From contig JAPEUI010000005.1 in the NCBI GenBank assembly GCA_026025075.1, positions 124,001 through 188,000 of the forward strand: a stretch of DNA of 64,000 nt, in the 5' to 3' direction. The DNA comes from Vezdaea acicularis. Taxonomy: Eukaryota. Shown piece by piece: positions 8,655 through 41,972 of the stretch. Position numbers and translations under genes: made by a program. Numbering within the stretch: position 1 is the first letter of the stretch; the number at the start of each line of letters is the position of its first letter. The notes beneath the pieces were generated by a model, which ran no database searches, was not told where the DNA came from, and saw only the letters and a list, made by a program, of their open reading frames with translations.

Positions 8655-10196
8655 TCAAGCCATGACGGTATCCACCGCTTCCACCAGGATTGCCGTATCC
8701 CGCATCCCTCCCTCGCCAGCGAACCCATCCATTTCCGTCTCCGCATCCCCCTCGGCCTTCGCACTCTCACTCTCCCAAATCTCCAACTCGTCCTTCTCCG
8801 CCAACGCATCCAGGGTGTCCGGGAGCGGAATATCCCAGGGCGCGGGAAACGTCGCTTCAGCCACTTGCTCCGGGAGAGCGTCCTCGAGCTTCTCGACGGG
8901 GGACAGGATTTCCTCCTCGAGCAAGACCGGAAGCGGGAGGGAGGAGGAAAGGGGGAGCTCGCCTTTCCCGGTCAAGGGGCTATTGTCCACATCGTCTGCT
9001 TCTAGCGGCTTGATTTCTTCCGCTGTGGTCTCGCAAGCTTTTTCTGCTGCTACGGCTGTGACGGGGGCCTCGGCTGGCGCCTCAGCGTTGTCGGTGCCAG
9101 CGGGACTAGACTCATACTCGCCCTCGACCAGATCGCCGAGCGGAGCGCGCACGTCGAGGGATCTCGCGGCAGCGACTTCAACTCTGGGTCTCTTGGCGCG
9201 GGGACGAGACTGGTCATCATCGCGCTCGACAGTGACAGTAGCTAGCACGCCATCGCGGCTGACAGACGCGTTGGTGGTGGAGTGAGCAGGCGTGTTTGTC
9301 ATGGGTGGGACGTTCTCTTTGCCCCGATCGTCGCGCGCACGGATGCTTGATTCGTCGTCGGAGGATAGGTCGAGTGTTGATGTCGTGTGTTGCATCACTG
9401 TGGTCAGGCGCTCTTGTTCGCTGTCTTCGTAGATGTCGAAGAACCAGCCCCTTTTTGCGCCTGTGGTGACAGGGGCGGGGACAGGCGTCGGTGTGGGTGT
9501 TGTGGGCGTGTATGACGGGAGGGTTCCGCTCAGGGCGGCGTCGATGGAGAAGGGTGGGGCGGAGGCGGAGGGGAGGGATGAGGGGGGTGAGATCCGGGTG
9601 AAGGGTGAGGAGGTGGTACGGGCGCGCGAGAGGATCCCTATCCGTTTGCTCTTCGGAGAGCGTCCTGCTGGGGCTATGGAAGGCGTGTTGTTAGAGGCCA
9701 CGATTGCGCTTGGTTTGCGGGGGGAGAGCATGGGGCGATTGTGGATAGTGCGAGTGAGAGTTGGTGAGGATGGAGGAGCTGCCACGGGTGCGGATTTGGA
9801 CGTGTTGCTTGCAGTGCTCAGATAAAATTTCTTGGGTGTGTTCATGGTCTTTGAAAATGGCTGCTCGGAGCATCCTTTCGCTTTCTTGGATGGCGAGGCA
9901 AGCAGGCTCGGATCAACGTTCTCGCTGTCCTCGTTGCTGTAATCATCTTGGACATGGCGGCGTTTAGTTGGGGCGTTGAGCTTGGTTGGGATAGCTGTAA
10001 GAGTCTCGTTAGCATTCTAGTCGACGCGTGGTTCTCGGTAGATCTAGAAATTGCTCTCCGAGGGTAAAGGCAACGAAATAGTTGCTGGGAGCATACCATT
10101 TTGACGATTCTTCATGCTCGTCAAGCTCTGAAGTCGTGAGTTATCCAGCATGCCAAAAGGCCGCCTAGCGGGAGACTGAGGAGCAAGTGTCGTCAT
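8655..10196 (-). CDS. Disordered protein with ABBA, KEN and D-box degrons; candidate Acm1-like APC/C-Cdh1 inhibitor, 2 exons
   Basis: ATG 10196 (MTTLAPQSPARRPFGMLDNSRLQSLTSMKNRQN); intron 9995-10096 (GTATGC..CTAAC..CAG) joins in frame to ORF 8655-9845; motifs FDIYED, GKENVPP, RAPLGDL. Confidence 0.8.
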
Positions 10197-10599: not shown

Positions 10600-10975
10600 T
10601 AGATACGCGTTGAAGCGTGTGTTGTTGGTGAGACGGTCCAATGGCGGTGCGCTGAGATGAGGATCGCGGATGTCGCCCTCCAGGCAGATCAAGGAGAGCG
10701 ACGCGGTCGACTGGACCGAACCGGAGCGACAACTGATGCGCCCGTCTTGAGGGATCGGACGTGGTGCCTGAGGACGCAGGGATTGCGCCAATGCGACGGT
10801 GTTCACGTCGTGTCGTTGGTCGGTCGGCTGGAGCTTGCGACGATTTCGGCCTAGAGCGACGCAGGAGCGCGCAAACGCTCAGCACGTCGCGTTCACGGTC
10901 AAGTCGCGAGTATAAAATGGGCGACCTCCCGCGTCCCCTTTCTTCGCGCACCCAATGAACACGATCCGCGACTGC
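10600..10975. promoter_or_regulatory. Cluster of MCB-like (CGCG-core) elements upstream of the 8655-10196 gene
   Basis: ACGCGT 10605-10610, ACGCGG 10701, TCGCGT 10887, TCGCGA 10904, CCGCGT 10929, TTCGCG 10943, CCGCGA 10966. Confidence 0.5.
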
Positions 10976-11150: not shown

Positions 11151-12134
11151 CTACCCATGAAGCCTCATGCGCTTCTGTACGTCATCCAGCCATGGAATGG
11201 CAGACTGCGCTCCATTACACTGGACAGTGATCGCTGCCGCTTTATTCGACCACTCAACCGCTTCACGAATATCGAAGCCGACGTCTGCAGCTGCTACCGA
11301 CGCGGCGTACATCCCGACGAATGTATCACCAGCCGCAGTCGTATCGACCACGTCCACTTTCTCTGCCTTGACCAGTCCGTACTCGCCTCCTTGAGTGGCG
11401 TAGAAGGAACCCTTGCTACCCAAGGTGATGACCACGTTGGGCGTCCCACGCCTGATGAAGCATTTAGCTGCCAGGTGAAGATTGTCCATCTCAAGATCCT
11501 CAACGGATGTTCCTGCTAAAAACGCAGCCTCGGATTCGTTGACGATGAGATGCGAGACCATTGGGTAGACATCGTCAGATAGTGAAACAGCGGGGGCTGC
11601 ATTCAAAATAACGGGGATCTTATGGGCAGCGGCCACCTTCAGGATCTGTACGACGGTGTCCAGTGGAATCTCTAATTGAAGTACGATGAGGCTCGGTGTT
11701 GGCGAGGGTAAGGTTTCGAAATGCTCTGGGCGTAATGTGTGATTTGCACCTGGACTCAGTAGTATCTGGTTCTCTCCCGTCTCGTCGTTGACGATGACAC
11801 AAGCAACACCTGTTTGAACGGGCTTCGGTCGTCTCAGAACATCCCCGACATTGACTCCATCTTTTATTAAGATCTCTGTTGCAACTTGACTAAAATAGTC
11901 ATCTCCCACTGCCCCAACCATGAAGACATCATAAGCCAATTCCTTCTCGGTAGGACCAATTGGTCTCGAGTGTGAAAGTCGCTGACAAGCGAGAGCTTGA
12001 TTTGCACCCTTGCCGCCAGCCCCTATCGTAAACGACTCTCCAGTCACTGTTTCCCCGGCTGAGGGTAGCCGTCTGGTTCGTGAGATGAGGTCGACGTTAA
12101 GTGAGCCAATGACTGTGATAATTTTGGCGGCCAT
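11151..12134 (-). CDS. RBK1: Ribokinase (PfkB family), intronless
   Basis: VIGSLNVDL, PSAGET, GGKGANQA, GAVGDD, LQLEIP, LNAAPA, VNESEA, VDTTAAGDTF signatures. Confidence 0.93.
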   Translation of the reverse strand: MAAKIITVIGSLNVDLISRTRRLPSAGETVTGESFTIGAGGKGANQALACQRLSHSRPIGPTEKELAYDVFMVGAVGDDYFSQVATEILIKDGVNVGDVLRRPKPVQTGVACVIVNDETGENQILLSPGANHTLRPEHFETLPSPTPSLIVLQLEIPLDTVVQILKVAAAHKIPVILNAAPAVSLSDDVYPMVSHLIVNESEAAFLAGTSVEDLEMDNLHLAAKCFIRRGTPNVVITLGSKGSFYATQGGEYGLVKAEKVDVVDTTAAGDTFVGMYAASVAAADVGFDIREAVEWSNKAAAITVQCNGAQSAIPWLDDVQKRMRLHG

Positions 12135-12406
12135 AGCTGTTGTACGAAGGATGGTGCCTACGGCGGGGTACCGCTATTTGATGATGGTGGGGGTATTTGG
12201 TTTTGAGGAAGCGAACTTTGTGCCCCTCAAATTCAAAAATTTGATATCTTAGGCCGATAATATCCGCAGATACTCATACAAATGCATACATTCTTCTCTC
12301 GAAAATCGTAGGGTTCATAATAACATGCAACTCCAATGACATGCCTACCTCACTGTAGCTGCAGCTAAATGACAGGCCTGCAATTTTATTCCCTTTGTCG
12401 TAGGAA

Positions 12407-15400
12407 ATGAAGTTCCTGGTCATTCCCGGGGAGGATGCCTTTTCTTCTTTTAGGATTGCCAACCTTCTGCGCTCATTAACCAGTAAGAGTCCAACTCACA
12501 AGCCGAAAGACTTGCGGGCGATCTGGATACACTATGTGAGCGTGGATGAAAGCTTGAAAGATGGAGATTCTCAGGATCAAGACTTGCGATATCTTTTGGG
12601 GGTCCCCACAGAGGATGATTCGGGAAATGACAGGCTCAAGCTAGAACTCCTAGCCACTATTCAAGGCTTAAGGGCCCCGGATGAAAATACCAGAGTCTTT
12701 TATATCTGCCCGCGGATCATCTCACCATGGAGTTCAAAGGCGACCAGCATTGCAAAAGTGTGCAACCTGGATTCCGTAAAACGAATCGAAAGGGGTATGG
12801 CTATTGCCATTGAGTTTGAGACTCCAATGTCCCTTGAAGGGGACATGCCCTTTGCAGAAGATATGTACGACCGTATGACCCAGACTTTCAGCCCCTACCC
12901 GCCAGACTTGGGAGCTATGTTTGCATCTACCCTGCAACAGGGGCCTCCTGCTCTTAAGATACCCCTCGGAGCAACAGATTCGACCGCTCGAGAAGCCTTG
13001 AAGAAAGCAAACAGAGATTTGGGACTTGCATTGGATGGACTAGAGATTGATTTCTTGGTCAAAGCCTACACTACTGTGCTTGCCAGAGATCCGTACGATG
13101 TGGAGCTTTTCATGTTCGCACAGGTCAATTCAGAGCATTGCCGTCATAAGCAATTCAATGCGGACTGGACGATTGATGGGATGCGAAAGGTGGATACCTT
13201 GTTCCAGATGATCAAAATGACTCATAAGTTGAACCCAAAGTACACTATCAGTGCCTACAGCGATAATGCAGCTGTGCTGCAAGGTGAGCAAGGGAGTCTC
13301 TGGGCTCCAGATCATGCTACGAGGCAGTGGTCCCAAAATAAAGAGGTGGTTCACTACTTAGCCAAAGTGGAGACCCATAACCATCCCACAGCGGTATCCC
13401 CCTTTCCTGGCGCGGCAACTGGATCTGGTGGTGAGATCAGGGATGAGGGCGCTGTTGGGAGGGGATCAAGGCCAAAAGCTGGATTAGCAGGCTTTTGCGT
13501 CTCTAACCTCCATATACCGAGCCTTTCGCAACCATGGGAGATCGATGTGGGAAAACCAAACCACATCGCCAGCGCCCTGGATATCATGCTTGAAGCACCA
13601 ATCGGGAGCGCCGCTTTTAACAACGAGTTTGGCCGACCTTGCACGGCCGGGTTTTTTAGAACCCTTCTGACCAGCACGGTCGTGGACAGGGATGGGACAG
13701 AAGAGTTCAGGGGCTACCACAAGCCTGTCATGATTGCCGGTGGACTTGGCACAGTGAGGCCGCAACATGCGTTAAAAGATGCGAATCTAGTCCGGCCCGG
13801 AGCATACATTATCGTTCTTGGTGGACCAGCAATGCTGATAGGGTTGGGTGGTGGAGCAGCATCTAGCGTCACCTCAGGAGAAGGCTCTGTGCAGTTAGAC
13901 TTTGCCAGCGTCCAAAGAGGCAACCCGGAGATGCAGCGAAGGGCTCAAATGGTGATTGACGCCTGTGTTGCAATGGGTGCTCAAAACCCTATCAAAATGA
14001 TACACGACGTGGGTGCTGGAGGTCTTTCGAACGCGTTGCCAGAACTTGTACACGACGCAAACTTAGGGGCAGCCTTTGAGCTACGGGAGATTGATAACGC
14101 AGACAAGAGTATTAGTCCTTTGCAGATCTGGTGTTGCGAGGCGCAGGAGAGATATGTGATGGCAGTTGGCCAGGAGGGTATGAATGATTTCGCGGCGATC
14201 GCGCAGCGAGAAAGATGTGGATATTCATTGGTCGGAAGAGCTGTCGGAAACGAGGGGGAAGAGAAGAGACTCATCTTGACAGATAGAGACTCTATTGAGG
14301 CTATGAAGCCGATAGACTTGCCCATGACCACGTTGTTCGGAGAGCCTCCAAAGATGACCAGGATTGTAGAGACGAGAAAGATACAGCATCTATCCTTTGA
14401 CAATAGTCTAGAGAGTTATGTGCCAAAGGGATCGATAGATAACACGCTCCTCCAAGAGGCCATCAATAGAGTTCTATCTATGCCGTCAGTTGGCTCTAAG
14501 TCGTTTCTCATCACAATAGGAGACAGAAGCGTTGGAGGGCTAGTCGCAAGGGACCAAATGGTCGGACCGTGGCAGGTCCCTGTCGCTGATTGCTCGGTCA
14601 CAGCAACATCTCTAACGCCAGGTATAAGGACAGGCGAAGCAATGAGCATGGGGGAAAAGCCAACGCTCGCATTAATATCTGCTGCTTCTTCTGCAAGAAT
14701 GGCTGTCGCGGAAGCATTGACCAACTTGGCGGCAGCCGATATCAAGGATGGGCTGGAAAGGGTACGGCTCTCGGCGAACTGGATGGCGGCAAGCAACCAT
14801 CCCGGAGAAGGGGCGGCTCTATATGAAGCCGTCGAAGCGATAGGAAGGCACCTTTGCCCAGCGTTAGGAATCAGTATTCCAGTGGGAAAGGACTCTATGT
14901 CTATGAAGATGAAATGGACAGATCCCGAGACGAAAAGGGGCAAAGAGGTCACAGCCCCGTTGACAGTTGTCATCTCAGCGTTTGCTCCAGTCTCCGATAT
15001 TACAAAGACGTGGACGCCAGTATTGAGAAGAGTAGAGGATGTTGGCGAATCTGTCATACTATTTGTTGACTTGGCCTTGAAACACCAAGCGATGGGCGGA
15101 TCTGCTTTAGCACAGGCCTTTGGCCAGCTCGGTGATGAAGTGCCAGACGTCCGAGATGTGCAGCTTCTGAAAGATTTCTTTGATGCGATTCAGCAACTCC
15201 AGGAGCAGGGACTCGTCCTTGCCTACCACGATCGGTCCGATGGAGGTCTGTTCACCACACTCGTCGAGATGATGTTTGCTGGTCGTTGTGGCCTTGATAT
15301 CGTCTTGGATCAATTGGCTTCAAACAACTCAACAGAGAACGTTGTCAAGGCTTTATTCAACGAAGAGCTAGGAGCTGTCTTCCAGGTTCGTGCTTCCGAT

Positions 15401-16507
15401 GAAGCAGACTTCCATAGATGCTTTGCCACCTGCGGACCGCCACCAGGCCTAATCAAGAAAATCGGTCGCGTCACGGGTCGCTCCCAGCAAACAATAACTC
15501 TTCGATATGGCTTGGATATCGTATACACTGGGACCAGAGCAGGTCTACAGCAACGGTGGGCGAGCACCTCTCATGCCATGCAGAAGCTTCGAGACAATCC
15601 TGCCTGCGCGGACTCTGAATATGCCACTATTCTCGATGATGCCGATCCCGGTCTTAGCTTCTCTTTAAGATATAAGCCTTCTGAGACTATTCTCCGCCTA
15701 GCAACTGCCCTCACAGCGGCTCTGACCCGGAGGCCGCGCATTGCGATCCTTCGTGAACAAGGTGTCAACGGTCACGCCGAAATGGCCTATGCCTTCAACT
15801 CTGCTGGCTTTGCAGCAATCGACGTCCACATGACTGATCTATTCCGAGGAGACGTAGACCTTGCTTCGTTCGTCGGGCTTGCGGCTTGCGGTGGGTTCTC
15901 CTATGGCGATGTTCTGGGAGCGGGACAGGGCTGGGCAAAGAGCGTCCTCCTCAACGCAAAGCTAAGCCGAGGCTTCCGCACCTTCTTTGGGCGCCCAGAC
16001 ACATTCACCCTGGGTGTCTGTAACGGATGCCAGTTCCTGACTCGTCTCCAAGCCCTCATTCCCGGGACGAATGGCTGGCCTACCTTCGAGCGCAATGCTT
16101 CAGAGCAATACGAAGCTCGCGTCTGTATGGTTGAGATCGATTGCCCGGTCTCTGCTGCCCGGCCTTCAGTCTTCTTCCACGGCATGCACGGCAGCCGTCT
16201 CCCTATAGTTGTGGCGCATGGAGAAGGTCGAGCTTCTGCCATACCCAGAGAAGGATTGGTCCCAATGCGGTATATTGATAACAGGGGACGAGTGACTGAG
16301 AATTATCCCGCGAATCCAAATGGTAGCCCAGGAGGGATTGCTGGCGTGCAGACTCCTGATGGAAGGGTGCTTGCGATCATGCCACATCCAGAAAGGACCG
16401 TACTCGCTGGTGTATCGAGTTGGGTGCCTCCTGGAAAGTGGGGCGAATGGGCCGATCATGGGCCATGGCATAGAATATTTGCGAGCGCGAGAAGATGGGT
16501 AGGTTGA
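12407..16507 (+). CDS. ADE6: Phosphoribosylformylglycinamidine synthase (large-type PurL), intronless, 1366 aa
   Basis: [86 protein letters not shown]. Confidence 0.98.
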
Positions 16508-20313: not shown

Positions 20314-23300
20314 CTATAGATAAGGCATCCAAAGAGCATCACTCATCGCCAGTTTTTGCGGCATTACCGCCGAGGAGATCAGATCGATAACAGTCTGATT
20401 CGCTGGTAAGTTCCCTACGGGCGGCTGCGCAAGACTCATCGCCTTCTTGACCACGATGTTAGAGTTAAACACCACCGTCTCCCTTAACTGGTGTTCCTGT
20501 GCCCCCCCACCTCTACTTTGCTGCGTGAACCAGAAGTTCATCTCATCCCTCACAAACAGGCTGAGATGCTGCTCAAGATCGAACTCCGGCTCAGTCAAGC
20601 ACCTTGCGATAGCCATGATTGCGCAGCCGAAGATGCCCTCGGTTGCTAGCGGGCCCATGAGCGTTTGCAGATTAGGCGTTAGCCGGAAGGGAACGGGCTC
20701 TGGGTTATGGAAGACAGCTTTGCCGGCTGCCATGGCCGGGATGAGTTCGGAACCCCAAATATTGCCGCTGGAGCGCGCTATGGACATCTTGTGTGGGTAG
20801 CGATTGTTCATGTGCATGACGTAGGTCATGAACGTTAGCGCAGCCATCTGGTAACTGAATTGACGGCGGAAAAGCCAGAAATCGGCGTAGGACGGGTAGG
20901 TCGCTTGAAAATACTCCAAGGCAATGGTAGATGGAACAAGCTTCTCCTGGATCGCGGTGTACGCTTCCATACGGACTTGTTGAGAATCGGGATATTTCTG
21001 TAGACTTGTCTTAGCACTTGCATGGATACTAGTAGGATCTGGTGAGCTTACAGCGTTCTTCATATCAGCCAAGGCACGAAGCTTCTCCATTGTAAAGAGA
21101 ACAGGTTCGTCCTTGTTCATGCCATTGCGTCTGCAGTGATCCTCATATACCCCTTGCAGCGATATATAGGAAGCATCGTCTTGAACTAAGCGAATGTGCG
21201 GAGCCAATGGTACCATCAATGGTAGATGAAAGTTGAGATTGCGACGACGGCTTTCCTTTCTCTTTGCCAGAATACCGTTGAAAATCCTGAATAGTTGCAG
21301 GATCCTTTCTTCACGACGACAGTGACGTGCTGCAGGGTGCTGAATTGCGAAAGGATGGATGCTCCCATCATGACCCCGAATCTTGAGCCTCCGGTGGCAG
21401 ACTCCAATGCTCCTGACTAAGTCTACATTGGGTAAGAAACATTCGATTCGGACAAAATCTGTATGCTTGTCTCTGAGCTGCAGATATTGACCCGGAACGT
21501 CCACCTCTTCAAACTTTTGAAATCGGAATTCGCTCAAGTGAGGGCTATACTGCTCCAAGCTTTGTGTGGACGGCCGGCGGTCCAGCTTCTCCTCAAACTT
21601 GTCTCGCCAACGACGAAGCTTCTGGATGTATTCATGCATAGTTGGTTTCTTGGTCACAAAGTCGGCCTCAAATGATTTGCGGATGTGAGCTGGCAAGACA
21701 GTCTCAGCGAAGCGAGTAATGTTCGCTTCTGTCGCCGGCGGTAATTTAACATCTTGAGCGTATGATGTTGGCATTCGACCAACGTATGACAGTCCATCGT
21801 TGAGTAAAGCCACGATCAGGCGATATGCATCCTCGTCTGGAGGGCACTTAAAGTGCTTCTGGATCTGATCTACCATAGTCTCCATCGAGAGAGCGAGTAG
21901 TGGAAAGGCTGCCTTCAGGATGGATGTAATTTCATCAGTATATTCCCAGGCATTTCTTCGAGCAGGTTCTTTGTTTGCCTGTTGCGATGAAGCTTGCGCA
22001 GCTCCACTCGGACTTGGCTGCTTCTGGCCATTTGGCTCCTGCTTTGGTGATATGGAGTTGTTCGGCTGGCCATTTACCTCGCCATTTGCGGTGTTGGGTC
22101 TCGACAAATTCTCTGCCTTGGTTTGCGGTGTTTGATTCCCTGTTGAAGGCGAGCTTTGCTTAGCAGAAGGGGATCCTTGACCGGCCCTCTTAGCCTTCTC
22201 TTGCTTCGCCTCCTGTTGCTTTTTGATAGTCAACATATCCTCACGGCTTGTCCGAAGAAGAAAGTATAGAGCCTGAGGATAGGCCTTGGCAATCTTGACG
22301 AGTACTTGCTTGCAGAGCCTAGCCTCTCTATGTGACAACGATACAAGAAGTTGAGGGATAAAGGTGATCCAGTACCAAACCGGAGTTTCGCCTTTGAATG
22401 CTTCGTATGCATCGGCGATGGTACTATTTGCATCATCTAGACTCAATAGCCACAGGATCCGGCTAAGGAGTTTTCGGGACTTCGAATTCTTGAAGAGTCC
22501 TGCGGCCTCGAGGTAACAACTGACAGCGGCTGCTCCGTGAACAATGTCATTTGGCTTCTCTTTGAAGAGATTGTCATTGTAGTGGCCCCATTCAGCCCAG
22601 GCCTTTGGAAGTTTCAGATCGTAATAGAGTGCCAATCCATAGGCGTCGTTAGCTTCCTCCTTATGATCAAGTTTGGCGAGGAACATTCCCTTGAGTGTAA
22701 AGAATTCGGCCTTTTGCTGTGCTCCGAAGTAGTTCAGGTTAGTGTTATTGATTACATCAAGTCCACTATTAAGCTCGGCCGGGTTTTGATAATGACATTT
22801 CGCTTGCTCTCTTAACTTCAGGAATGCTTCTTGAATCTCGATATTCGGCAGTGTGTATATCCTGCCGAGTTGGTTGATGCAGACCTCAGGCAATTGATGC
22901 TTACGGGCAACATGTGCAAATCTATTAATGATCCAGGCAGTCTCGTGATATCCGCGGTACGCAAATGAGTTGCTGGCTGCGGCACCACCTTGCTGTGGTA
23001 TGAGATTCAGGTAAGTTTGGTTGACGATGCTGAAGATATGCTGTCGCCAAGTCACAAGATCCTGCCAGGCATTAATGTCATCCCAAACATTTGGCAGGCG
23101 GTCCCGCCATGTGCCAAGGAGCAGCTTCAACTCTTGCGACTTGGTGTCCAAATTTTGCTGGTTCGTCTGCGCCAGACTGGAGCAGATTAGACTGGCATCG
23201 TGAAGCTCAACGAGTTGTTGGAAATTTTGCAAGATGGGAATGTGAGCATTGGTAATTCGCTTCGGTAACTGATGCCATTTCCGGATCGATAGCTGGATTG

Positions 23301-26300
23301 CCTCATCACAGAGCCGGTTGAACTCGGGAACGGTCTCGGTCTTCCCATGAAGCCTCAAAAGAGACATGAAAGCCTGGAAGAAAGCTCGTCTCGGAGTTGG
23401 TGCATCCATCAGGCCCTTGATAACCGAGTCAAGCTGCTCGCGTGTCTCATTGCCTTGCCAGAGCTCCTGCTGTCGCCATGCACATTCCAGGAGGAGATCA
23501 TTGAAGTTTTCATGCTTGGCGAAGTCATTAAGGATATCCCATTGTTGGAGCTTCTGCGCACATATGACCCAGTGATCTTCCCAGAGCATGTATTCACCCT
23601 GCGAGAAAGGAATGGCTCCTGTTCTAGCCTTGATTTGTGCGGCCTCGTACATCTGTTGCGCTTTATCCCAGATCCCGTTCTGTTCATAAGACAAAGCGGC
23701 GTTGGTCTCGACGAACTGGCAACGACGGCGCCAGGTGCCATAGAACAAGTCATCCTCGCCTAGTCCAGCATAGACTTCGACCAGTGCGTCAAGATTGCTC
23801 TCGCGGACACTTGAGCTATCAATGTTTGGCTTGATGGCTGCCTCCTCAAGCATACACGTAGCTGTATACCACGCATCGTACGTTTTACTAACAAACTTCA
23901 GGACATGAGGAGGTATCTTGAAGGTCGGACGTGATTTTGCTACCCCGTCGAGAAGAGTCTGAATCACGTTTGGCCGCCTGTCAACCTGTCTGTTGTGATG
24001 GTCTTTCGTGATAAGCGTGACTATGCCCCGTTCAAGCTCCGCCCTTTCCTCTTTCGACATTGCGGACCAACATAAGGGGAATAGGTAAGTCCAGATATCA
24101 TGAGAGACGGTTGGGTCTAGATGCTGGAGTTGACAAAGCGGCTCGAAGATGTCACGGGCTTTAACTTCTCCAAGCTCCTTGCAGAAATCCCTTTCTTTGG
24201 CTATGCATTCCTCATAAGTCTCTTCCAGCATCAGTTCGTTCTTGCGGGGATCCTTAGCATAGTTACTGAACATTGCTGAGGCAGGAAACGTGCGGAAGTC
24301 TTCGTGATGAAGCTGCACTGGCGTACCCATCTCAACAGAGCCAAACATAAGTTGCGTTGCTTGGTGAAGCCAAAATGATTCTCCAAGAACATCCCAATGT
24401 TGAACAGTAAGGATATAGTTCAGTCTTGAAGTAGCCGTCTTAGTCAGACTCTTCTCAAAGATGGTTAAGAATCGATTACGCATCTCAACATCCTGAGCTC
24501 GAGTACCAACCAAGAACGCATGTTCTAAGCGCACAGTGAGTTCAGAGCGTTTAATCTTGTTGTCCTCGTAGATACGTAGGACAAGATTCAAGAACCGTGT
24601 CAATAATGTCTGATCAGGTCGCTGCTCGAATAAGAGCATTTTAAGGAGGACAGCAGTCTTTTCCTTCAGGGTAGGGAAGGGATCGTTAGACGAAAAGATC
24701 CAAACCTCCACCATGTCAAGGATCTTCATACATAATGGGGTGCTCTGAGACTTTTCGACAAGAGAGGCGAGGACGGAAAGAAAGGGTCGTCGTTGATCAC
24801 CTAGAGCAGACATTCGAAGCGCAACAAGGTCCACCGTTTTTAGTATCAGCTCCGTCTGTATCTCTAGCTCCGTTTGATCAGGTGTGGGAGGCGCAGGAGT
24901 GGGAATACCTCCTTGATGGACAGGTGGTGCGCTGTGGGCCGCTACATGATCCCGAGCAAGTTTTTGTTGAAGTGCCTTCATGACGTGGGGAATATGCTGG
25001 TCCATCTCTGACGGCTTGCGTTTCGAGAGGGTCCAAAGAATATTGATACTCGAGATGTGATTTCCTGCGGATAACGTCTCTGTTGCAATGGCGGAGAGGA
25101 AAGTGACGAATTCAGACGTAGGGGCCTCAGCATCTGGCTCCTCTTCATCTTGGTTCTCTATTGGCACAGCATCCAGAATCCGTTTCACGATTGGCTTCAG
25201 CTTTCGACTGTCTTCAACGTCTTCTGCAGCAGTATGTAAACAGTCTTGTATCTCTGCATTGTCTGAACGAAGGGGCTTCTCTAAAAGCTTCTGGATCTCC
25301 GGAAGATGGGAAACAATCCATTCGTCTGTTTTCGTATTCAGGATAATTCGCATTACTTGAAGGATATCCATGACTCGAGTCGTATGTCTTTCATCAGGCT
25401 TTTCCGCCTTGTCGGACCACAATGATTCAAAGACTTTGCTGTCTAATTTGATGTCTAAGTCGCTCCAGTAATCTGCACTTAGCAGATCTTGGAGAAGCTG
25501 AAGAGACTTGTTAATCATTTCGGTAGAATTTGCTGCCGAGATTGGCCCATGATTCTGAGTCTTTTCTCTTATCTTGCTAGATGGAACAGGATAGCGTTCT
25601 GGAAGCATTGAGACGAAGCCTATTAGATATTTGATGAGGCTTGTCCTCAGTGCCACTGGAATGACATACTCGGCCTTTTCGTTATTAAGCGCTGATGATT
25701 GAGATGTCGCGGATGGCGAAGCAGAGTTATCATGGGAGGCGTCCAGCTTTCTTTTCTTAGAGTTCGGACTGTCCGAAGCAGCTGGCACAGCCAGCCCCGT
25801 CCCTTTTACTCGCCGTTGCTCCCAAATCCAGATTAGCCGGATGACATTGAGAGCTAATTTCTTAGTTTCATTCGAAGGGGTTGGGGGAGAGGCAATCTTA
25901 GGGAGCGACTGTATCAGAACGAGGACGAACTGTTCCCGTGAATCGTAGAAAAGCGCAGGATGCCGCACGAGAAACTGAAAGATGGACATCATTTGCTGAG
26001 GATTCGAGCTCTCTTCAGACAGAATTCGTCTCGGTAGTATAGCCCATCTCGGGGTTCTATTGTCAGCGGCACCTGCAAGGCGTTGCGGCAGAACTGGTGC
26101 GATCAGCTCTAGAGACTGGGTTACCAAAGAACGCCCCTCATTCTGATGTGCACGCAGTAACGCCACATAGATCTGAAGAGTGATCTTCGGAGGCGTTTCA
26201 AAGTGTGCTATGAAATAGCTAAGAACAACGTAAGCAGCTTGCTTGTTAATGACGTCCTCAAGCTTGATGTACGTCCACCCAAACTTGATAAATTCTTTTC

Positions 26301-29300
26301 GGGCATCTTGCAGTAGTCGGTGATGGTACTTGATAGCCATAGCAGACATCTGCAGCAACTCCATGCGAGAATGATCTACGCCAATCTGGCTTGAATCGTC
26401 TCCCGGCTCAATCATAGTAGTCTTCCAAATCTTTTGGTTGATTGTTTCTGTCATATTCCTATCCATCAGCCTAGGACTTGTTGGTGTAAGCTTCTGAGGG
26501 GGGTGCCGCATGATATCCATGGCAAGGATAGGGTTGACGAGATAATGAAAGGCGAAAGTTTTGGACTTCTGAGACACACTCGGTTTCCCATAAAGATCAA
26601 GACATCGCGTGACGATACCACGCCAATAATCTATAGAATCATTGCAGACTATGTGGTCGTAGATGTACTTAATGAAAGTATACGACGTCTTGACTTGTTC
26701 ACTCGTCCGGGCTTCGATCATCTCAAAGAGAAAATCCACATTCTGAGGCGCGTGAATGAGATATCCTGTTAATATCTCGACAAGCTGCTGTCCTGCCTGC
26801 TCTACTGCAAGTCGAAGATGTTTTTGCGTTGTATTCTTACGCAGGTTACCTTCAAGAACTTTGCCCGCACTGAACAGCTGCTGCCTCAGGTTATCCTGCG
26901 AGACTAGCCATTTACTAGTTGCCGGCTGTATGCAAATGGAGTGTACGACATGAATTGCATTGACTGTTGCTGCATTTCGGTGTTCTGGATTTGTTGGCTC
27001 CATAAATGCCTTCAAAATCTTGTCCGGGCTACTTGTAACTGTTACACGCAGCGCATTGCTTGAGTCGTCTTGAAGTATTTGAGAGAAAAACCTTCCGTAC
27101 TTCATCTCATGAAGTCTTGCGGAGAAGAAGTCCCATGTTTCTTCGGGGTAACGATTCAGGTACTTGACCAATGGCTCTCGAAAGGGGCTATAGTGCGTTC
27201 TCCGAAGCTTTTCTTCCAACTCTAGAACATTGTCTACTAGCTTCGGGAGGAATGAAATCGCTTTATCTGGCAGGAGATAGAATATGTTGAGGATAGCAGC
27301 CACTATTTTCATGCCCTGGTTTTGTTCTACAAGGTTGAAGGATATCTTTTGCAAGGCATTTGGCTCGGCAATTGTCTTCATATGGTCGAGTAACCTCCAT
27401 CCAATCTCAACTTTGAAGTAGTTGGTAAGCAGCATCAAGAGCCTTGCCAGACCGTCCAGACCGGCAACCGTTAGTCGTTTCGGATCCTGCAGGTTCATGA
27501 GAATAGGTCTCAGCCCATTTTGGAGTAGTTCTTTCGGAAGTTTGTTAGTCGTTGATAGAACTGCCTTTAATCCCAAGTTCGCAGCATCGATCACATCCGA
27601 ATATTTCGAGTAGAGGGACTTAAAGAAGACTGATATAATACGAGAGCGACTATGATTCTGAGGCGAATTCCCAAATTCAGCGAAGCTCATCGCCATCGAC
27701 AAAAGCCGAATGCATGCCACACGAAGGTTGACGATGTTGTCAGCCGTACGATATTCGATGAGTCTGTTGGCAAGAGTTTCATCCTCAGATTCGGCTAAAA
27801 CAAGGGTCTCGACCAGAAGTCGATTGAGCGGCTCGTTGAATTCCACTAGATCGTGTCCTAAGCTCAGACAAAAGGTAATCGCATCGATATAGCCTATTTG
27901 GATAGGGTGTGGTAATGCACGGAGAGGTTTATTATATATTGGACCAAGCAGACGTTCCTTGACTGGGGTCATCAAAACATAAACTTCTGTCCCTGTTACT
28001 TCGGCAATGATACTGAATGCTTTCTGTGCCGCTTCCCTTACATGTCTGTTCATATGAGCCAGCTCATAGATCAAATATCCGCAAAGGTTTAAAAGTCTTG
28101 GAACCGGCTTCCCATCTTTAACTTGGTGTTTATTGCAACGCCTTAAGAGAACCTCCAAGGTGGCCTGTGATTGTATTCTGGTCTTGGCGGGAAGGTCTTG
28201 AGGCATGTCTTTCATTACATATAGCAAAGCTCGGACGAATTCGGTTTGTCGTGAAGCCATCCATACATCTCCAAGATCTAGCTCGGTGGCGTAAATATGG
28301 ATACCGTAGCTCCCGCCCGCCTTTGTGAACCACTCTTCTTCATAGCAGCTGTGACAGAATGTTCTCGCAAGATGACCGAAGAAGGGGAGCATTGACGCCT
28401 TTTCCTTAGACCCGAATATCAAAGAGACTGATTCGTATACCGTCTTGATAGCCTGCTCAGCAGCATCTCGTACCTTCACAATATCTGAGGCGAAGCTTTC
28501 TACAATCGCATCAGCCAGTACACGACTGTCGATGAAAAGCGGTCCCTCTCCAGAGTGGACATTAAATGTCTTCCCTTCCTGTTTTAGCTGGGCTAAAGAC
28601 CGGCCAACCTCAAGCACCGTAAGATGACGGCACACTTTTGTTAGAAGAAGGCTTGCCTCTTCGCTGAGGTCTGGAATAGATACCGCGAATATGCATGCTT
28701 TCAGCAGCTTCTTAACATTATCCTGCTGATCGTCCTTTTTGACAATAGACTTCTCTCGCTCGGACTTCCCCATATAGTCAGCAGCAGAATCATACTTAGC
28801 TTCTACTAGATCGTTTGCTTGCAATCGTACGAGTTGAGCAAAATCATCGGGCAGGCTGTCGAATCCTATCGAAAGCTTCAGCTGAGCACTGATCAAGCGA
28901 AACGCCTGTTGCTTGTAGAAGCCATCCGACTTTTTCGCTGCCTGAGCCTTAGGGGCTTCCAACAGTTTGCTGATCGCAAGTTCAGTGCCGAGGGTAGCTG
29001 GAAACGGACGTTCCTTGGTTGACCCAACCAGTTTCAGGTCGATGCTGCTTCTATCATCTGCATATTGCTCGAATGAGAGAGCGGGAGGACCATTCAAGAA
29101 CTTCCGATTTCGTCCTCCGAGTTTCCCCAGGATACGCATAGTGGTATGCGAGTGAAAGTGCGTGTACGGCGCAGGTCGTAGATGTTCCCAAAGGGCCGTC
29201 ATGAGCTCATCCATTACAGGAGCCATGATTGGATCTAGATAGTCGGCCGTAAGATTGTCGACACACAGCTCTAATGTTCTAAGACCCTGGCTAACAAGAT

Positions 29301-31958
29301 CTGATCCAGCCCTTAAAGCAATGACTAAGGGTCTCATGAGATAACTCAAATGTGGCAACAGGTTGCTTAAGCGCGCAGGCACTGTCAGGCAAAGCTCAAC
29401 GTATAAATCTCTTTCCGTGGGTTTCCTAGCCGCTAGGAGTAGATTATTGAGCACTTCGAGGAGCATCTCTAATAAAGGTAAAATCTCTTTGTATAGGTGT
29501 TCAAATCTTCCCCCACCAATGCTTCTGAATAGCGAGCGTAGTAGGAAGAAATAGTTCATTGGCTCTTCCGCAGTGGTCGAGAGCTGGATCGACTTGGTAA
29601 CAATTTTCGTGACATGCGGGAGTAGTACCTGCTCATTTTGATTTGAAAACAGTGTTACAGCCATGAAGGACAGCTTGAAGAGTCGTAGTAAGATGGAAGA
29701 CTTCTCGATGTTCTTGCTTCCTACTTCATGGATCCGGTCCATGAGAAATTGTAGAAGCATGCCAGCAAAACTCGGCGATGTTGACTCGCAAGCCAAGAAA
29801 AATTGGGGTACGTGGAGTAGAGCCGTATGCTCAAACATCATATCGTACAATCTAGGGATCTCGGAATGAAACACTTCATGGAATGTTGCAGGGTCAATGC
29901 AATGAAAGATGGTCGCAAACGCTTCAAGAAGATCTTTTTCTTCTTTGCCACTATTGACCATATAGTGGTTTGCATAGAATTCGACAGGTGACGAGTAATT
30001 CGATTCTGTGGGCGGTTTTGCAAGGCTATAATATCGAAAGACATATGCTCCTTCTCGGAACAGTTTTGTAATCACTTTCACCTCCTCAGCGTTGTAACCA
30101 TACGAAACTTCCTTCCAGTTTGCAGGAGCGTTCGTGGCATCAATCGGTTGATCAACCGGATTACAAGCTTTCAGCTGGTAAAAGATATTCTTGAGTCCAT
30201 TTACTAGGTTCTTAAATAGAAATTTATTCTCAGCAACTGGATTTGCGCTTCGGTCTCGAGGATTCGACGTTTTGATGGGTACTGCCGTGAATATGTCTAT
30301 TTCATCCCAGTCAGCCTCACCATCTTTCGGAGCAAGAAAGTTTTCGGGGGCTGCATCAATAGTCTGATTTTCGTATTGCTCGGTGAGTTTTACCGCATTC
30401 GGATATTGCCGGTTCATCGCTGCAAACTTATCTCCAATGGCATCGAGGATCATTATCAGGAAATGACGCGCATCCTGCCTGTCATCTGGCTTTTCGTTTA
30501 GTTTTGCGATACAGTCCGCCATATTAAGAAGAAGCTTAGCGCTCATGGTCTGAAAACTTGTTCCAGGAAAGTCGTCATGCAAGTTCTTCGTATAAACCTC
30601 AACCGTCTTTCGTATCTGTTCTGGCTTAAGGGCGTCTCGGACGTGGTGGATTAGATCTGCCAACATGCTGTATGCTAAGGGTCTCATTGTTTCATATACG
30701 GTCAATCCATCCCCTATGAGTGTTCTCTCCTCAAGCAATGCATCAATTTTCCTTAAAAATATCTTCCGGAAATTGAAATTGATGATGTGGCGTATTGCAA
30801 CTAGCAACTCCTTCCTAGCACTTGACTTCTCTCGTGGACAATCTTGCAAAAGTCGCACAACGATATCCGGAAGAGTCGGGAGGAAATCTTGAAGTTGATG
30901 AGCATAGACTCGTAGGAGATAGGCGAGGAAGCTCATAGTCTTCACTTGCGCAGTAATAAAGTCTCCAAAGGCGACTCGGTTCTTGATCTCAGGGCTTACT
31001 CCTGCGAATACTACTCCTTCTTGCTGAGCTTTCGTGTGGGCATTTTGCTGCGGTTTGGCCTGCAGCAGCAGAACGCCCTTTATGAGTGGTACGAATAGAG
31101 ACACATTCCTCTTGACAAGAGCCCCGTGCTTTTGGAAGAGAGAGACAACTATGATTGGGCATTCGGCAAGCACCTTGAATGATTGCATCCCGGGGAGTAA
31201 TTTCCTGTTAACTTGCTGCTCGCCTCCAAGGTCGGTAGTTGTTGTGGTAGGGGAGCTCGGTCGAGGTGATTGGAAATTTGTGGCATTAGGAGTCGAGGGC
31301 AAGCCAGAAGCGCTTCCCTGGGCTGGTATATCAAAAGTATCCACGACAGCCTTCTCCATCATCTCAAACATCTCCATAATAAGATCTAAAAATGGTTGAA
31401 CTTTGTCGCCAAGTACCTTCGTTTGATTTCGTTGAAAGTCCATGATGATCTTCATTATTAGAACCGCATTATCCTCGTTCTCTTTCCGAACCAAGTCCAT
31501 CAGCTTCGCTACAACTTCCACAGCGTATGGCTCCAGAGCCTCAACGGGCTGGTGGGGAAGGCGGTGCAGGATCTCGAATATACAGTTGCGTAGCCTCTAA
31601 TGTTCACTGCGTCAGAGTACTTTCTTCGCATTATATCGACAAGTCTATCATACCTGTCTGGGGACCATGCTATTCCATTCCACCAAGCCATCTAATAGCT
31701 TCATAAAGACGGGCATAAGTTTCTTGAGAAAGACATTATAGAGTTGCCCTTGCGCCATATACTCTATGTTGTCTCGAAGATCCGTAGCAATGACAACCTT
31801 ATTTTTCAAATCTAGAACGCGGGGTGAGAATTAGTTGATATTTTGATCTTCAAAGCCACTCCATAATTGATGTTTGAAGGGTATAAGGTTGGGAACGTAC
31901 CTCCATTTGGGTCACCAAGCTTAGCCGCGTAGACATCAATGTTCCTTTCGTGAGACAT
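20314..31958 (-). CDS. TRA1: TRRAP/Tra1 PIKK pseudokinase, subunit of SAGA and NuA4
   Basis: >3700-aa ORF with HEAT repeats ([13 protein letters not shown]), FAT domain ([21 protein letters not shown]), pseudokinase region and FATC-like end ([10 protein letters not shown]); ATG 31958; introns 31812-31900, 31597-31653 and probably 20998-21051. Confidence 0.98.
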
Positions 31959-33216: not shown

Positions 33217-35700
33217 TCACCGCTGGCTGCCTACCGAGTTCTGTCTCTCATGATCCTTACGCCGCCCTCCATCTCGATACTCCTTTGGTGCCCCATCATC
33301 CTGGAGTCGTAGAGCATCCAAGCGTTTCTGGCTATCTTGTGTTGCCGGGTCGATCTCATCTATGCGCATAGGGGAGCCTACTTTGCCGGATCGCGTTGAG
33401 CCAGCGCTTCGCATGCTAGTGAAAGTTGCCCCCGCCTGCACCTGTTTTGCACGATCTGCGACCTTCTCCCACTTGCTTTGACGTTCGCTTTGCACTTGGT
33501 CCACGTTGTTCTGGACCTCGGTGTAATCGTGAGAGCAGTCATCGAAGAGTTGTGGGTTGATCTCCATGAATAGCTTCATAGCGTTGTAAACCATACCATG
33601 AATTGTCCTATTAATGATAAGCCACAAGCCGTATTTGTGCATAACCAACGTTTTTTACATACCTGTTCCAGTGACCCTTTGAGTTTTCGTACAAAGGGGC
33701 GAACATGATTGGTAAAATGACTTCCACGTTGTCGCTGACGAGATTACAAAAGTACTCATTATTCCAAAAGTACAGAGCCCGCTCGGCAACCTATGGTGGA
33801 TTAGCCTTGCATGACGAAGGGGGCGAATGATCTGTACCTGGAAGTGAGGGCTGGCCACGGACTTGGCCAGCTGGTTGAATAACGGCTCTTGCACCTTCGC
33901 AAACTCCGCTGGGTCCATTACTTCAAAGATATCCTCCACCTCATTTAGAAACATGACCTCCTTTGTGCTATTTGTTTTAGGCCAGTATCGTAAAAGACCT
34001 AGTACAACCTGCTCTGGGTTAGTCCGTTCCACCAAAAACTCAAGATATCAACATACGTCCTCTGTCAACACAGCATCCTTCTCCAAGAACTGGACGATAC
34101 AATATGCAAGTTGAGGATGATACATGCTCAGGCTCTTGACTTTGTGAAGTGGGAGCAAGACTCTTGTGAGGAATAGCTTATGCTCTTCTTTGAGTGGCAG
34201 AGCAAATCCGTTAATGATTGACCCGAGGATCTCCAAGAGCTCGGCAATTCCATTGAATCTTTCTGTTTCATAGACGAATTGAAAGAAGACGTTGTTTATC
34301 GACCGTCGAATATACGAGCGAAGGTTGAGGAATTTGCCGTAGATGCGATGAAGCGTCGTTTTGAGAAAATCTCTTTCGCGAGGGTCTTCCGAATCGAAAA
34401 GTTCAAGAAGCTGAACTCCTGATTAGTTGCGGGACTACCAGGCCGAGTAGAACATACTCACTTGAAGAACAAATTGATGATCTATATATTGTTTTGCGAT
34501 ATTAGTATTGAAGTCTTGGCTTTCAATGAATCTGAGAAAAAATTCATAAACGACTTGAATATGTGGCCAGGCCACTTCAAGAACCGGCTCATCTTCTTCT
34601 GGATCGAATGCCTCGCCTTGTGGGTTCACGGGAGGTGGTATAGGACGAAACAAATTCTTGCTGAACATGTCGACAACACGGGGATACATCGATTCGGTAA
34701 TGACTTGACGGTTGTTCGCCACATAATCTAGCAACTCATGAAGCGCGAGTCTCTTGATTTCCTTTGACTTCATATCACCACTTGCATCGTTGAAGTCGAA
34801 AATTATATTGCATTGGTCAATCTTTTGCATGAAAAGTTCTTGTCGTCTGTTAGGTGGCACTTCGTGAAATCCTGGGAGCTTTTCTAACTCTCGTTGCGGG
34901 GAAATGTCGAAACGAGACGAATGCTGGCGTTTTGGGGTTCGGATACCTTCTGGAACATCTTTGGGAGTGGCCTGAAGACGATCGAAAAGCAGGGTCTTTT
35001 GACCTGCCTTGGGGGGTGCGAGGTCACCAGGCATCGTTTCTGTAGCTCCAGGTTGAGGAATATGCTACGTATCGAAAACGTCAGCTTCAACTTGATGGGG
35101 TCGACAGATCTATGTTCTAACGCACACATGGTTACGCGTCTCAGCCAAGGGGACAACTTACTGGTGCACTGGGGCTGATTACAACGCTTGGAGCCAAAGG
35201 GCCTTGTCGCATTGGCGTTGTCGAACCCGAGGAGTTAGGCATTGCGCTCACTCCATTGTGAGCTTGAGGCAAGGCTGATTGGTTTGGAGCGAGCGGGTTC
35301 AGGTGACTTGGTGGAATTGTATGAGGTTGGCTGAGATGGTTGTTTGGTGCTGCAGGTTGATTGTTATCTCCCGGAGGCAGAGGCTTATTCCTCACATCGT
35401 TTAATGTGGTTGTTGATGAGGTGGGCGTTCCATGATTTGAGCTTGCCGGAGACTGCGACCGTACTGTTGAGCCTGCTCCGGCACTTACATTGGACGGAGA
35501 GGAAGTGCCAGATGAGTCTTTATTCTTAGAAGATTTCTTAGAGTCTTTAGTGCGAGACAGCTGTTCGTGCTGAGATAGTCAGCGCTCATTCACAGTTATG
35601 ATCGTGTGGTGATGCCTCTTGAATCAGAACGGATTATGCTGGCTGAGGATTCAAAATCACGGATATGGTTACTTACCACTCTCTGCCTGAAGCCCTTCAT
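33217..35700 (-). CDS. RTS1: PP2A regulatory subunit B' (B56), multi-exon
   Basis: MKGFRQRV start, [64 protein letters not shown]; several GT-AG introns; a possible extra 3' exon ends at 32868. Confidence 0.95.
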
Positions 35701-40064: not shown

Positions 40065-41972
40065 ATGGAGACCTTTCTGAGGACTTGGAGGCAAGATGCC
40101 ATAAACAAGCACCAGTACGACTCTGCCATTTTCATCGGTGACAAATTACTTGCCCTCACAAGTGCGCAGTACTTTACATAATGCTGGAGCCCCGAACTAT
40201 AATGCTGACATGTGCTCACCTCAGACGACGACCAAGACGCATTCTGGCTTGCTCAAGTACACTTTTCTACTGGCAACTATACACGCGCTCACGGCTTTCT
40301 ATCCAGGCACGGCCTAATTGGACGAAGCCCATCGTGTAAATACCTTGCATCGTTGTGCTTGATAAAACAAGGGAAATATGAGGAGGCCCTCCTGATCATG
40401 GGCGAGAAGAGCCCCGTACATCTGATCCATCGGCCCAACCACAGTCGTCGGAAACTTCAACACGCGGATGGAAATGTCCGAAATGGTGCTTCAAGAGGCG
40501 GAAAGACCTTGTATAAGAATGCGCCAGAGAGGAACGAGGCCAAGGACAAGGAAGAAAAAGACCACATTCAATTTGAAGCCGCAACGTGCTTTCTCCGAGG
40601 ACTATGCTACGCTAACCAAAATGCTTTGGATCGAGCAAAAGAGTGCTACAAAGATGCTGTTCGGATAGATGTCCAGAATTTTGATGCGTTTGACCAGCTG
40701 ATGAAGAATTGTCTAATGTCTCCAGATGAAGAATGGGAATTCCTCGAGTCCCTTGACTTCGATGTCCTGACCGTTCCGGGCGACGCCTCAGCCTCACAAG
40801 AAGCGGCCAGCTTCACTAAGATGCTCTATATCACCCGACTCTCCAAATACAAAAACTCAGATGCCTTCGCAGCTGCCACTGAAGACCTATCTACGCACTA
40901 CAATTTGGCCAATAACGCCGACCTCCTCCTGTCGAAAGCCGAACTCCTCTTCACCCAATGCCGCTTCCGCGAAGCCCTTAGTCTCACCGAATCAATTCTT
41001 AGCTCCGACAAATACAACTTCAGCGTCTATCCTCTCCACCTGGCCTGCCTACACGAACTGAACCAGAAAAATACTCTCTTCTTGATCTCGCACGATCTGG
41101 CAGATCACCACCCAGAGGAACCCTGCACCTGGCTCGCCGTAGGCATATACTATCTCACGACCCGCAAAATCGCTGAAGCGCGCCGCTTCTTCAGTAAAGC
41201 CTCGATGATGGACCCACACTTTGGGCCCGCCTGGATAGGGTTCGCGCACACCTTCGCAGCAGAGGGCGAACATGACCAAGCCATCTCAGCCTACAGCACG
41301 GCCGCGCGCCTCTTTCAAGGAACGCATTTGCCGCAACTCTTCCTGGGAATGCAGAACCTTCAGCTGAACCAGATGACCCTCGCCGACGAGTACCTGAAAT
41401 CCGCACTCTCGCTATGTCGCGAAGACCCGCTTCTGCTGAACGAGATAGGCGTCGTGTACTACCACCAAGAACATCATGCCGACGCCATCCGCGCCTTCAG
41501 CCAGGCCCTCGCCATCGCCGACTCCATCGACTCCGAGAGCCGCGCCTGGATCCCAACGCGCGCCAATTTGGGTCATGCATACCGCCGAGCGGGCCAGCCC
41601 ATTCTTGCACTCGAAGCCTTCGAGGAGGTCCTGCGCCAAGGCGGGCGCGACGCCGGACTTTTCTGCGCAAAGGGACTGGTGTTGATGGAGCTGGGGAGGA
41701 GTTGGGAAGCAGTCGTGAGTCTGCATGAGGCGCTCGCCATCAGCCCACAGGATCCTGTCGCGACAGATCTGTTAGGACGGGCGCTGAGTGAGAATGCGGG
41801 GGTTGGCCTCCTGGCTGCGGGGGAGGAAGGGGGTGTCGAAGAGGAGTTCGAGAGGGAGTTGAGCTTTCGGAAGAAAGTCGTAAAGACGGGTGGTGGGCGG
41901 AGGGACAGGGGACGGAGGAGTAGTGCGCAAGGAGAGGCTAGTATGATGGTTGTGAGTGATGAAGAGGAGTGA
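40065..41972 (+). CDS. CDC16: Anaphase-promoting complex subunit Cdc16/Cut9/APC6 (TPR), 2 exons
   Basis: LRTWRQDA..KHQYDSAIFIGDKLLALT, DAFWLAQV, ARRFFSKAS.MDPHFGPAWIGFAHTFAAEGEHDQAISAYSTAARLFQG; intron 40162-40224. Confidence 0.96.

Follow-up and report, generated by a model that had tools for sequence, protein, structure and literature searches.

A disordered protein family of filamentous ascomycetes with conserved ABBA, KEN and D-box motifs arranged as in the APC/C-Cdh1 modulator Acm1

The gene described here lies on the minus strand (10196..8655) of a 64,000-nucleotide stretch of Vezdaea acicularis DNA (assembly GCA_026025075.1, contig JAPEUI010000005.1, positions 124,001 to 188,000), which we call the window. 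It consists of two exons, and its spliced product is a disordered protein of 479 amino acids that carries an ABBA motif, a KEN box and a destruction box (D box) in this order. These are motifs of the type bound by the coactivators of the APC/C, a cell-cycle ubiquitin ligase (anaphase-promoting complex/cyclosome); their order, the ABBA-to-KEN spacing and the residues that define them are conserved throughout a large protein family. Since the degron-defining residues are conserved, the protein very probably binds APC/C coactivators in a multivalent fashion. Whether it acts mainly as a pseudosubstrate modulator in the manner of Acm1, the APC/C-Cdh1 modulator 1 of Saccharomyces cerevisiae (Q08981; structure 4BH6), is a more tentative matter, to which we assign slightly less than an even chance. 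The family itself appears to be undescribed.

A first-pass annotation, made from the letters of the window, had noticed the three motifs in the order ABBA, KEN, D box. We recomputed the positions and all of them agree. The features of this part of the protein are, in the direction of transcription:

9423..9446, minus strand: ABBA motif (A-motif-like) WFFDIYED, with the core F219-x-I-Y-E-D; FDIYED lies at 9423-9440; conservation of W 0.97, F 0.99 and I 0.98.
9384..9422, minus strand: post-ABBA segment with a predicted helix at residues 226-237.
9348..9374, minus strand: acidic/serine block LDLSSDDES; conservation of L241 0.97, D242 0.99 and D246 0.99.
9303..9323, minus strand: KEN box GKENVPP, of the KENxxP form; KEN itself lies at 9312-9320, with K, E and N conserved at 1.00.
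9114..9149, minus strand: D box RAPLGDL with the conserved extension VEGEY (RAPLGDLVEGEY); RAPLGDL lies at 9129-9149; conservation of R 1.00 and L 0.98.
8757..8786, minus strand: C-terminal ABBA-like LEIWESESAK; family logo I/F/V-x-I/V-W-E-S-x-S-A-K.

Conservation was counted over 420 stored relatives, fragments included, a relative being kin found by similarity. A KENxxP motif is present in 420/420 of them and is followed by a D box in 416/420, while ABBA motif, KENxxP and D box occur in order in 407/420. The C-terminal motif, written as ΦxΦ[WFY]E[SD], was found in 352/420. Similar results were obtained for the 133 proteins that were newly found by a search without word index: all 133 contain KENxxP and 126 the ordered triplet. 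Among the seven remaining proteins, four are without the ABBA pattern, one is without the D-box pattern, and two have all three motifs out of order. Thus, motifs that vary among homologues, which would have spoken against the proposal, were not what we found; they are strongly conserved.

The same picture emerges at the level of single residues. In an alignment of 26 sequences from about ten classes, 13 columns are invariant, and eight of these define the degrons: the ABBA F and I, the four letters K, E, N and P of the KENxxP box, and the D-box R and L. Two further invariant columns belong to a SENxDP motif in the N-terminal part, namely its E and its N. A larger alignment comprised 374 rows, namely the spliced window protein and 373 stored proteins of 330-520 residues, with other lengths and the proteins P0001-P0003 left out. 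Here K, E, N and the D-box R reach 1.00; the value is 0.99 for the F of the ABBA motif and 0.98 for its I and for the D-box L. The distance from the ABBA F to the K of the KEN box is 35-47 residues with a median of 40 (n=397), and this tight spacing suggests a high-affinity clamp. From KEN to D box the distance is 13-75 residues, with a median of 35. The family logo of the ABBA motif reads W-x-F-x-I-[HY]-E-D-T and is followed by a conserved segment, the KEN box reads GKEN[IV]PP, and the D box reads R-x-P-L-G-D-L-x-A-x-D-F-Y-A-E-G-C-D. Position P9 of this D box is most often occupied by A (196 relatives), V (104), T (51), P (31) or S (15), and Asn is outside the eight commonest states, which together account for 409/420. 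An acidic-aromatic pair at +10/+11 of the D box is found in 380/420 relatives.

To judge how easily such motifs arise, the 479-residue sequence was shuffled 20,000 times. The ABBA pattern appeared in 7.3%, the KEN motif in 5.5% and the D-box pattern in 32.7% of the shuffles; the three coincided in 0.085%, and in 0.005% they also stood in the order observed. A chance origin of the motifs is untenable, because they are conserved across the family. Pfam returned no family for it at E<=10, and the AlphaFold2 model of the 445-residue exon-2 product is disordered, with a mean predicted local distance difference test (pLDDT) score of 48.5. The model contains just two helices, one immediately behind the ABBA motif (192-203, exon-2 product numbering) and one at 215-221, and the post-ABBA segment is the part modelled with the highest confidence (mean pLDDT 80 for a 10-residue block).

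Taken together, we infer that the protein binds coactivators, that it inhibits instead of being turned over, and that it is under the control of cyclin-dependent kinase (CDK). An inhibitory role of the Acm1 type is suggested because the D box rarely has Asn at P9 and carries a conserved acidic-aromatic extension, as does DB3, a D box of Acm1. Most likely, the protein docks on the WD40 propeller of Cdh1 and/or Cdc20 through its three motifs simultaneously. The inter-blade groove would take up the ABBA motif with the helix that follows, the KENxxP box, about 40 residues further on, would reach the top face, and the D box would insert into the D-box receptor shared with Apc10. Control would be exerted by the CDK sites together with weaker N-terminal degrons, namely an RxxFxxLxN box after a Ser-Pro (SP) site and the SENxDP motif. 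The N-terminal part of the protein and the region between it and the ABBA motif contain the following features:

10164-10175, minus strand: SPAR, full CDK site.
10140..10166, minus strand: N-terminal D-box-like RRPFGMLDN, with R, F, L and N at P1, P4, P7 and P9, respectively, directly after SPAR.
9909..9929, minus strand: KEN-like DSENVDP (xENxxP); E24 and N25 invariant in the family alignments A1 and A2; motif in 361/420 relatives.
9876..9896, minus strand: SPSKKAK, a full CDK site with a basic patch like a nuclear localisation signal; SPSK lies at 9885-9896.
9828..9839, minus strand: TPKK, full CDK consensus site.
9714..9725, minus strand: SPRK, full CDK consensus site.
9582..9668, minus strand: basic/SP block AGRSPKSKRIGILSRARTTSSPFTRISPP; R145, S146 and P147 conserved at 0.98, R167 and P170 at 0.97.
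9522..9557, minus strand: motif PPFSIDAALSGT; S183 conserved at 0.99 and A187 at 1.00 (374 sequences).

All four full CDK sites that the first-pass annotation had named (SPAR, SPSK, TPKK and SPRK) are present and fall within the first 127 residues. Its C-terminal LEIWES is likewise there, starting at 8786, but it should be corrected that it is not terminal: its last residue is 442 of 479, and 37 residues come after it. The N-terminal D-box-like element (SPARRPFGMLDN is residues 8-19 of the window protein) has the family consensus RQPFAxLDxxRLxxLxSxKNRQN. Its pattern was detected within the first 40 residues of 197/420 relatives, and the first exon is absent from many gene models.

Between 9522 and 9668 (minus strand), three stretches are conserved to the same degree as the degrons (0.9-1.0 over 374 sequences): AGRSPxxKRxGILSRRR, R-[IV]-[DE]-PP-x-F and PFS[IL]DAALxGT. 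They match no motif that could be identified. Several candidate sites were considered in the window protein and set aside. A separase pseudosubstrate in 'EEEILSP...LPE' and an ExxR site in 'SEQER' are unconserved in the alignments, and a 14-3-3 RxxSxP site in RRxxSSP was dropped as speculation. KRIGILS was dropped as well, as it fits the Mad2-interaction motif only in part.

The main rival to the Acm1-like reading is that the protein is an ordinary APC/C substrate. Its degrons would then serve only its destruction at mitotic exit or in G1, and its real job would reside in the N-terminal motifs, which would bind another partner. We regard this as quite plausible, if on the doubtful side. True substrates such as cyclin A and Clb5 also combine ABBA motif, KEN box and D box, and consequently the motifs alone cannot separate an inhibitor from a substrate. 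Lysines are found around the degrons in the translation, and the non-degron motifs are conserved like degrons (S183, A187, R145, S146 and P147 at the values listed above); these motifs (GRSP..., R-x-x-PP and FSxDAAL) suggest another partner or function. However, a substrate with a job of its own fits less well with a protein that has no folded or catalytic domain. For a pseudosubstrate speak, besides this lack of a domain, the fixed ABBA-to-KEN clamp with its tight spacing and the long conserved D-box extension with non-canonical P9, which resembles the one known inhibitor D box so extended. Further points weigh against an Acm1-like modulator. The relatives share descent and were retrieved by similarity, and therefore the counts show conservation, not independent events. 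The N-terminal box has F instead of L at P4 in the family, and the linker between KEN and D box is longer and more variable than in Acm1 (median 35, range 13-75, versus 21). Finally, in language-model features the family comes closest, among named clusters, to one with Pfam Securin (0.77-0.78), which has the rank of a lead only. Acm1 also stayed out of reach of homology searching: in runs of phmmer and of two family profiles against all PDB chains, the Acm1 chain of 4BH6 was not recovered at E<=10, where HMMER filters may hide very weak matches. These searches gave chance-level matches only, namely to an NADH dehydrogenase subunit (E 0.52) and to polyubiquitin (E 0.59). As the profiles failed to retrieve Acm1, the resemblance is one of architecture and motif detail, and common descent is not demonstrated. 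Thus, of the counterpart to Acm1 that had been proposed, the architecture is real, conserved and parallel to that of Acm1, but sequence and profile searches did not lead there.

Two other explanations have to be considered. The motifs could be conserved for another partner, such as a WD40 protein or a kinase, their resemblance to degrons being coincidental. APC/C binding is deduced from sequence, short motifs are degenerate, and a D-box-like pattern arises in 33% of shuffles. Nevertheless, three degron classes are invariant at their defining residues and stand in canonical order and spacing, for which the joint ordered chance is 0.005%, and we consider a coincidence improbable. Alternatively, filamentous ascomycetes could have in this family their securin, or a further one: KEN box and D box would lead to its destruction, and the C-terminal (E)IEIWES would block separase as a pseudosubstrate. 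A KEN box, a D box and then a patch with a near-invariant Glu loosely fits the profile described for the securins of each clade (Cromer, 2019), ELEIWE of the window protein loosely recalls human EIEKFFP, and in the nearest named Atlas cluster mentioned above 55% of the members bear Pfam Securin. According to the same study, the securin of Chaetomium globosum is XP_001225358.1, with homologues that span the Pezizomycotina. In contrast, the C. globosum member of the present family, CHGG_10777, is XP_001226044.1, a different protein when compared by accession, and no other protein of C. globosum stands in the listed top 120 of 668 matches. Moreover, PF04856 was matched by 0/30 members at E<=1. 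In the pattern-anchored logo Glu occupies the would-be P4 in only 57% of members and, without variation, the would-be P1, whereas securins have an acidic P6, Glu at P4 and a large hydrophobic residue at P1. A median of about 25 residues follows the patch, compared with about 83 after the motif in the human separase-interacting segment; counted from its start, the C-terminal motif is a median of 31 residues away from the C-terminus. With its I/F/V-x-I/V-W-E-S consensus, the patch seems to behave in an ABBA-like manner. Securin identity is therefore unlikely, and our estimate for it is very low indeed, although the family and the published securin could be distant paralogues.

The extent of the family was assessed by several searches. 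A word-index search yielded 191 proteins at E<=1e-3 among 8,000 scored, of which the best 120 were listed. A profile built from 30 members and used without word index found 631 representatives at E<=1e-3 and 360 at E<=1e-30 (best 150 listed). A word-index search with a Remersonia query gave 668 matches at E<=1e-3 (best 120 listed), and a region-restricted word search gave 50 candidates. The length range of all three word-index searches lies above Acm1-size proteins (<244 residues). Organism names are known for part of the matches, and the taxonomic range given here is that of the best-scoring matches listed. Among those listed with names, all relatives are Pezizomycotina. They belong to the Leotiomycetes, Lecanoromycetes, Dothideomycetes, Geoglossomycetes, Lichinomycetes, Arthoniomycetes and Coniocybomycetes, to the Eurotiomycetes (Emmonsia, Fonsecaea, Helicocarpus, Polytolypa, Pyrenula, Penicillium, Endocarpon and Phaeomoniella), and to the Sordariomycetes, including Neurospora crassa NCU07771, Chaetomium thermophilum CTHT_0050460 and C. 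globosum CHGG_10777.

The names given to family members are 'hypothetical' or, in many UniRef entries, 'Thymidylate kinase' (e.g., P0009, P0189, P0335, P0353 and P0364). No such Pfam match was obtained for the window protein or for the 30 members scanned, and the AlphaFold2 model is disordered. We thus rejected a thymidylate kinase identity, and the label looks like a propagated annotation error. The expectation of the first-pass annotation that the family would be hidden among unannotated or mis-annotated proteins was borne out by these names. Gene models are affected as well: the deposited model of P0335 (C. globosum CHGG_10777) is without the N-terminal RQPF box, has unrelated residues in the place of the ABBA motif, and is probably mis-spliced. 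Similar N-terminal errors were seen in several others (P0053, P0010).

For the window gene itself, the following structure was obtained:

10097..10196, minus strand: exon 1, 33 codons plus one base, with the ATG at 10196; encodes MTTLAPQSPARRPFGMLDNSRLQSLTSMKNRQN plus one base.
9995..10096, minus strand: intron of 102 nt with donor GTATGC, branch site TGCTAAC and acceptor TTACAG.
8655..9994, minus strand: exon 2, including the stop codon at 8655-8657.

In support of exon 1, the peptide that it encodes, RRPFGMLDNSRLQSLTSMKNRQN, can be aligned with homologue N-termini, and the predicted spliced junction would read KNRQN-A-I, matching homologues. A public ENA model of near-identical sequence, P0003 (window 8655-9392, minus strand), starts at an internal Met (MQHTTS...) and comprises 246 residues; it is without the N-terminal motifs and the ABBA motif, and one residue difference to the window product was seen (EEEN versus EEEI). 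At 8662-9285 (plus strand) the gene is overlapped by an antisense open reading frame (ORF) of 207 codons with a high content of Ser, Ala and Gly, which is most likely a by-product of the sense-strand composition and no gene. ACGCGT sites, which resemble MluI cell-cycle boxes, occur 13 times in the window. Two of them are located at the 5' end of the gene, one in the intron at 10024 and one at 10605, some 410 bp upstream of the ATG, compared with an expectation of about 0.24 sites for the 1.16-kb span concerned. The pair gives a weak hint toward G1/S-type transcription.

The neighbouring genes are ordinary housekeeping genes: Tra1 (a 3760-residue ORF at 20317-31596, minus strand), FGAM synthase (12404-16504, plus strand) and a PfkB-family sugar kinase (11154-12173, minus strand). 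At 40209-41969 (plus strand), an ORF that combines an ANAPC3 domain with numerous TPR repeats represents a TPR subunit of the APC/C, of the type of Cdc27/Cdc16/Cdc23. It is 30 kb away from the gene and nothing connects the two, so their proximity may well be coincidence. An exon-sized ORF at 34438-35064 (minus strand) matches the PP2A B56 regulatory subunit (E 1.2e-52). No Cdh1 or Cdc20 coactivator gene was found within the 64-kb window.

Within the collection of papers searched, full-text searches returned no paper naming NCU07771, CTHT_0050460, CHGG_10777 or GLAREA_04728, and for 'Acm1 homolog', 'Acm1-like' and similar terms they returned nothing relevant outside budding yeast. It is from these negatives that the family seems undescribed. 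Filamentous ascomycetes include the models Aspergillus nidulans and N. crassa as well as many pathogens. For A. nidulans, Paolillo et al. (2018; PMC6078057) state that there is no obvious homologue of EMI1, Acm1 or Rca1, and for this reason the cyclin PucA is presented there as essentially the sole off-switch of APC/C-CdhA at G1/S. A protein with ABBA motif, KEN box and extended D box that occurs throughout the subphylum is a concrete candidate to fill this inhibitor gap. In addition, how an extension of the D box makes a degron an inhibitor could be studied here in a second and independent case.

How does the family compare to known APC/C clients and inhibitors? Securins (Pds1, Cut2, PTTG1 and the Chaetomium securin) are likewise disordered APC/C clients with KEN box, D box and a conserved acidic patch. 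They differ in that securin is a separate gene in C. globosum, and in that the present family has neither a PF04856 match nor the long separase-interacting segment. The N-terminal region of cyclin A and Clb5 (PF16500) also unites D box, KEN and ABBA motif within a single disordered segment, and the Pfam entry for the APC/C-binding region of cyclin A, Cyclin_N2, gave a weak match in 2/30 members (best E 0.027), which speaks for the Acm1-like reading but is below significance. The window protein has no cyclin box. Mes1 of Schizosaccharomyces pombe and OSD1 of plants are pseudosubstrate inhibitors of the APC/C in which KEN or GxEN and a D box are placed for simultaneous binding (He et al., 2013; PMC3690534). 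Compared by description, they differ from the family by the ABBA motif, none being reported for them in the passages of He et al. consulted. In Mad3/BubR1, the KEN box is flanked by Cdc20-binding ABBA-type motifs (PMC5179498), and the order in the window protein, ABBA, KEN, D box, ABBA-like, similarly puts KEN between ABBA-type motifs. Unlike Mad3/BubR1, the window protein matched neither TPR nor any other family in Pfam (E<=10), and its second ABBA-like motif is much farther away, with about 94 residues from D box to motif.

The closest parallel is Acm1. Its A motif comprises residues 61-70, of which F61, Y64 and E65 contact Cdh1 and E66 contributes, and a helix extends from the A motif up to residue 80 (He et al., 2013; PMC3690534). 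The same study places NEN at 90-92 and KENxxP at 98-103 with an overlapping SP site (SPAK), and reports that NEN and GxENxP engage the KEN receptor. It gives the N-terminal D box, DB1, as SPSKKRTILSSKNINQKPR and also as SPSKKRTILSSKNIN, after an SP site. DB3, the high-affinity D box of Acm1, with R119, is given as LREGGRIALKDLSVDEFKG and also as RIALKDLSVDEF, with V at P9 and E-F at +10/+11. Acm1 further possesses a 14-3-3 site and a K motif, and its length is about 209 residues (CIR 59-128 plus 81 C-terminal residues; PMC3690534). DB1 is a Cdc20-specific D box conserved in Acm1 orthologues (PMC4114781), and residues C-terminal of the Acm1 D box ('DBE') were reported to blunt Apc10 function (PMC12401543). 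Two of the Acm1 strings given in the first-pass annotation, RIALKDLSVDEF and KENLSP, match the table in the supplement to He et al. (2013; PMC3690534), and its A motif is in accordance with F61, Y64, E65 and E66 in their text.

Several of these features recur in the family. Both proteins are without a folded domain in their coactivator-binding parts, and both have CDK sites. An N-terminal SP site is followed by a D box, DB1, in Acm1 and by a D-box-like motif in the window protein; in the family this motif reads R-Q-P-F-A-x-L, with F in place of L at P4 and with an S/T-P site before it in some members ([ST]P-x-RQPFAxL). An A/ABBA motif F-x-x-[YH]-E-[ED] (F-x-I-[HY]-E-D in the family) precedes a helix in both, here as predicted by AlphaFold2. 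KENxxP lies 35-47 residues downstream of the ABBA F in the family and 37 residues downstream in Acm1 (F61 to K98). A degenerate xEN motif is also shared, NEN in Acm1 and SEN in the window protein. Finally, the D box is RxxLxDL in both, without a common Asn at P9 and with [DE]-F at +10/+11, a correspondence to DB3 at the motif level only (RxPLGDLxAxDFY versus RIALKDLSVDEF). There are differences as well: with 479 residues the window protein is about twice as long as Acm1, the SEN box of the family is upstream of the ABBA motif whereas NEN of Acm1 is between ABBA and KEN, and the family KEN[IV]PP has no overlapping SP site, in contrast to the KEN of Acm1 with its SPAK. Moreover, the family has extra conserved motifs (the GRSP-basic block, RxxPP, FSxDAAL and LDISSDDE) that are absent from the anatomy of Acm1 as laid out by He et al. 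(2013).

One might speculate that the family is the true orthologue of Acm1, which we hold to be rather unlikely. The inhibitor would then predate the split between budding yeast and filamentous ascomycetes, and budding yeast would have kept a shortened core. If so, the family would be the direct APC/C-CdhA inhibitor that has been missing from Aspergillus, from Neurospora (NCU07771) and from their relatives, and its second set of motifs, namely the N-terminal RxxF box, the SEN box and the C-terminal ABBA-like WES, might allow it to engage two coactivators, like the mitotic checkpoint complex.

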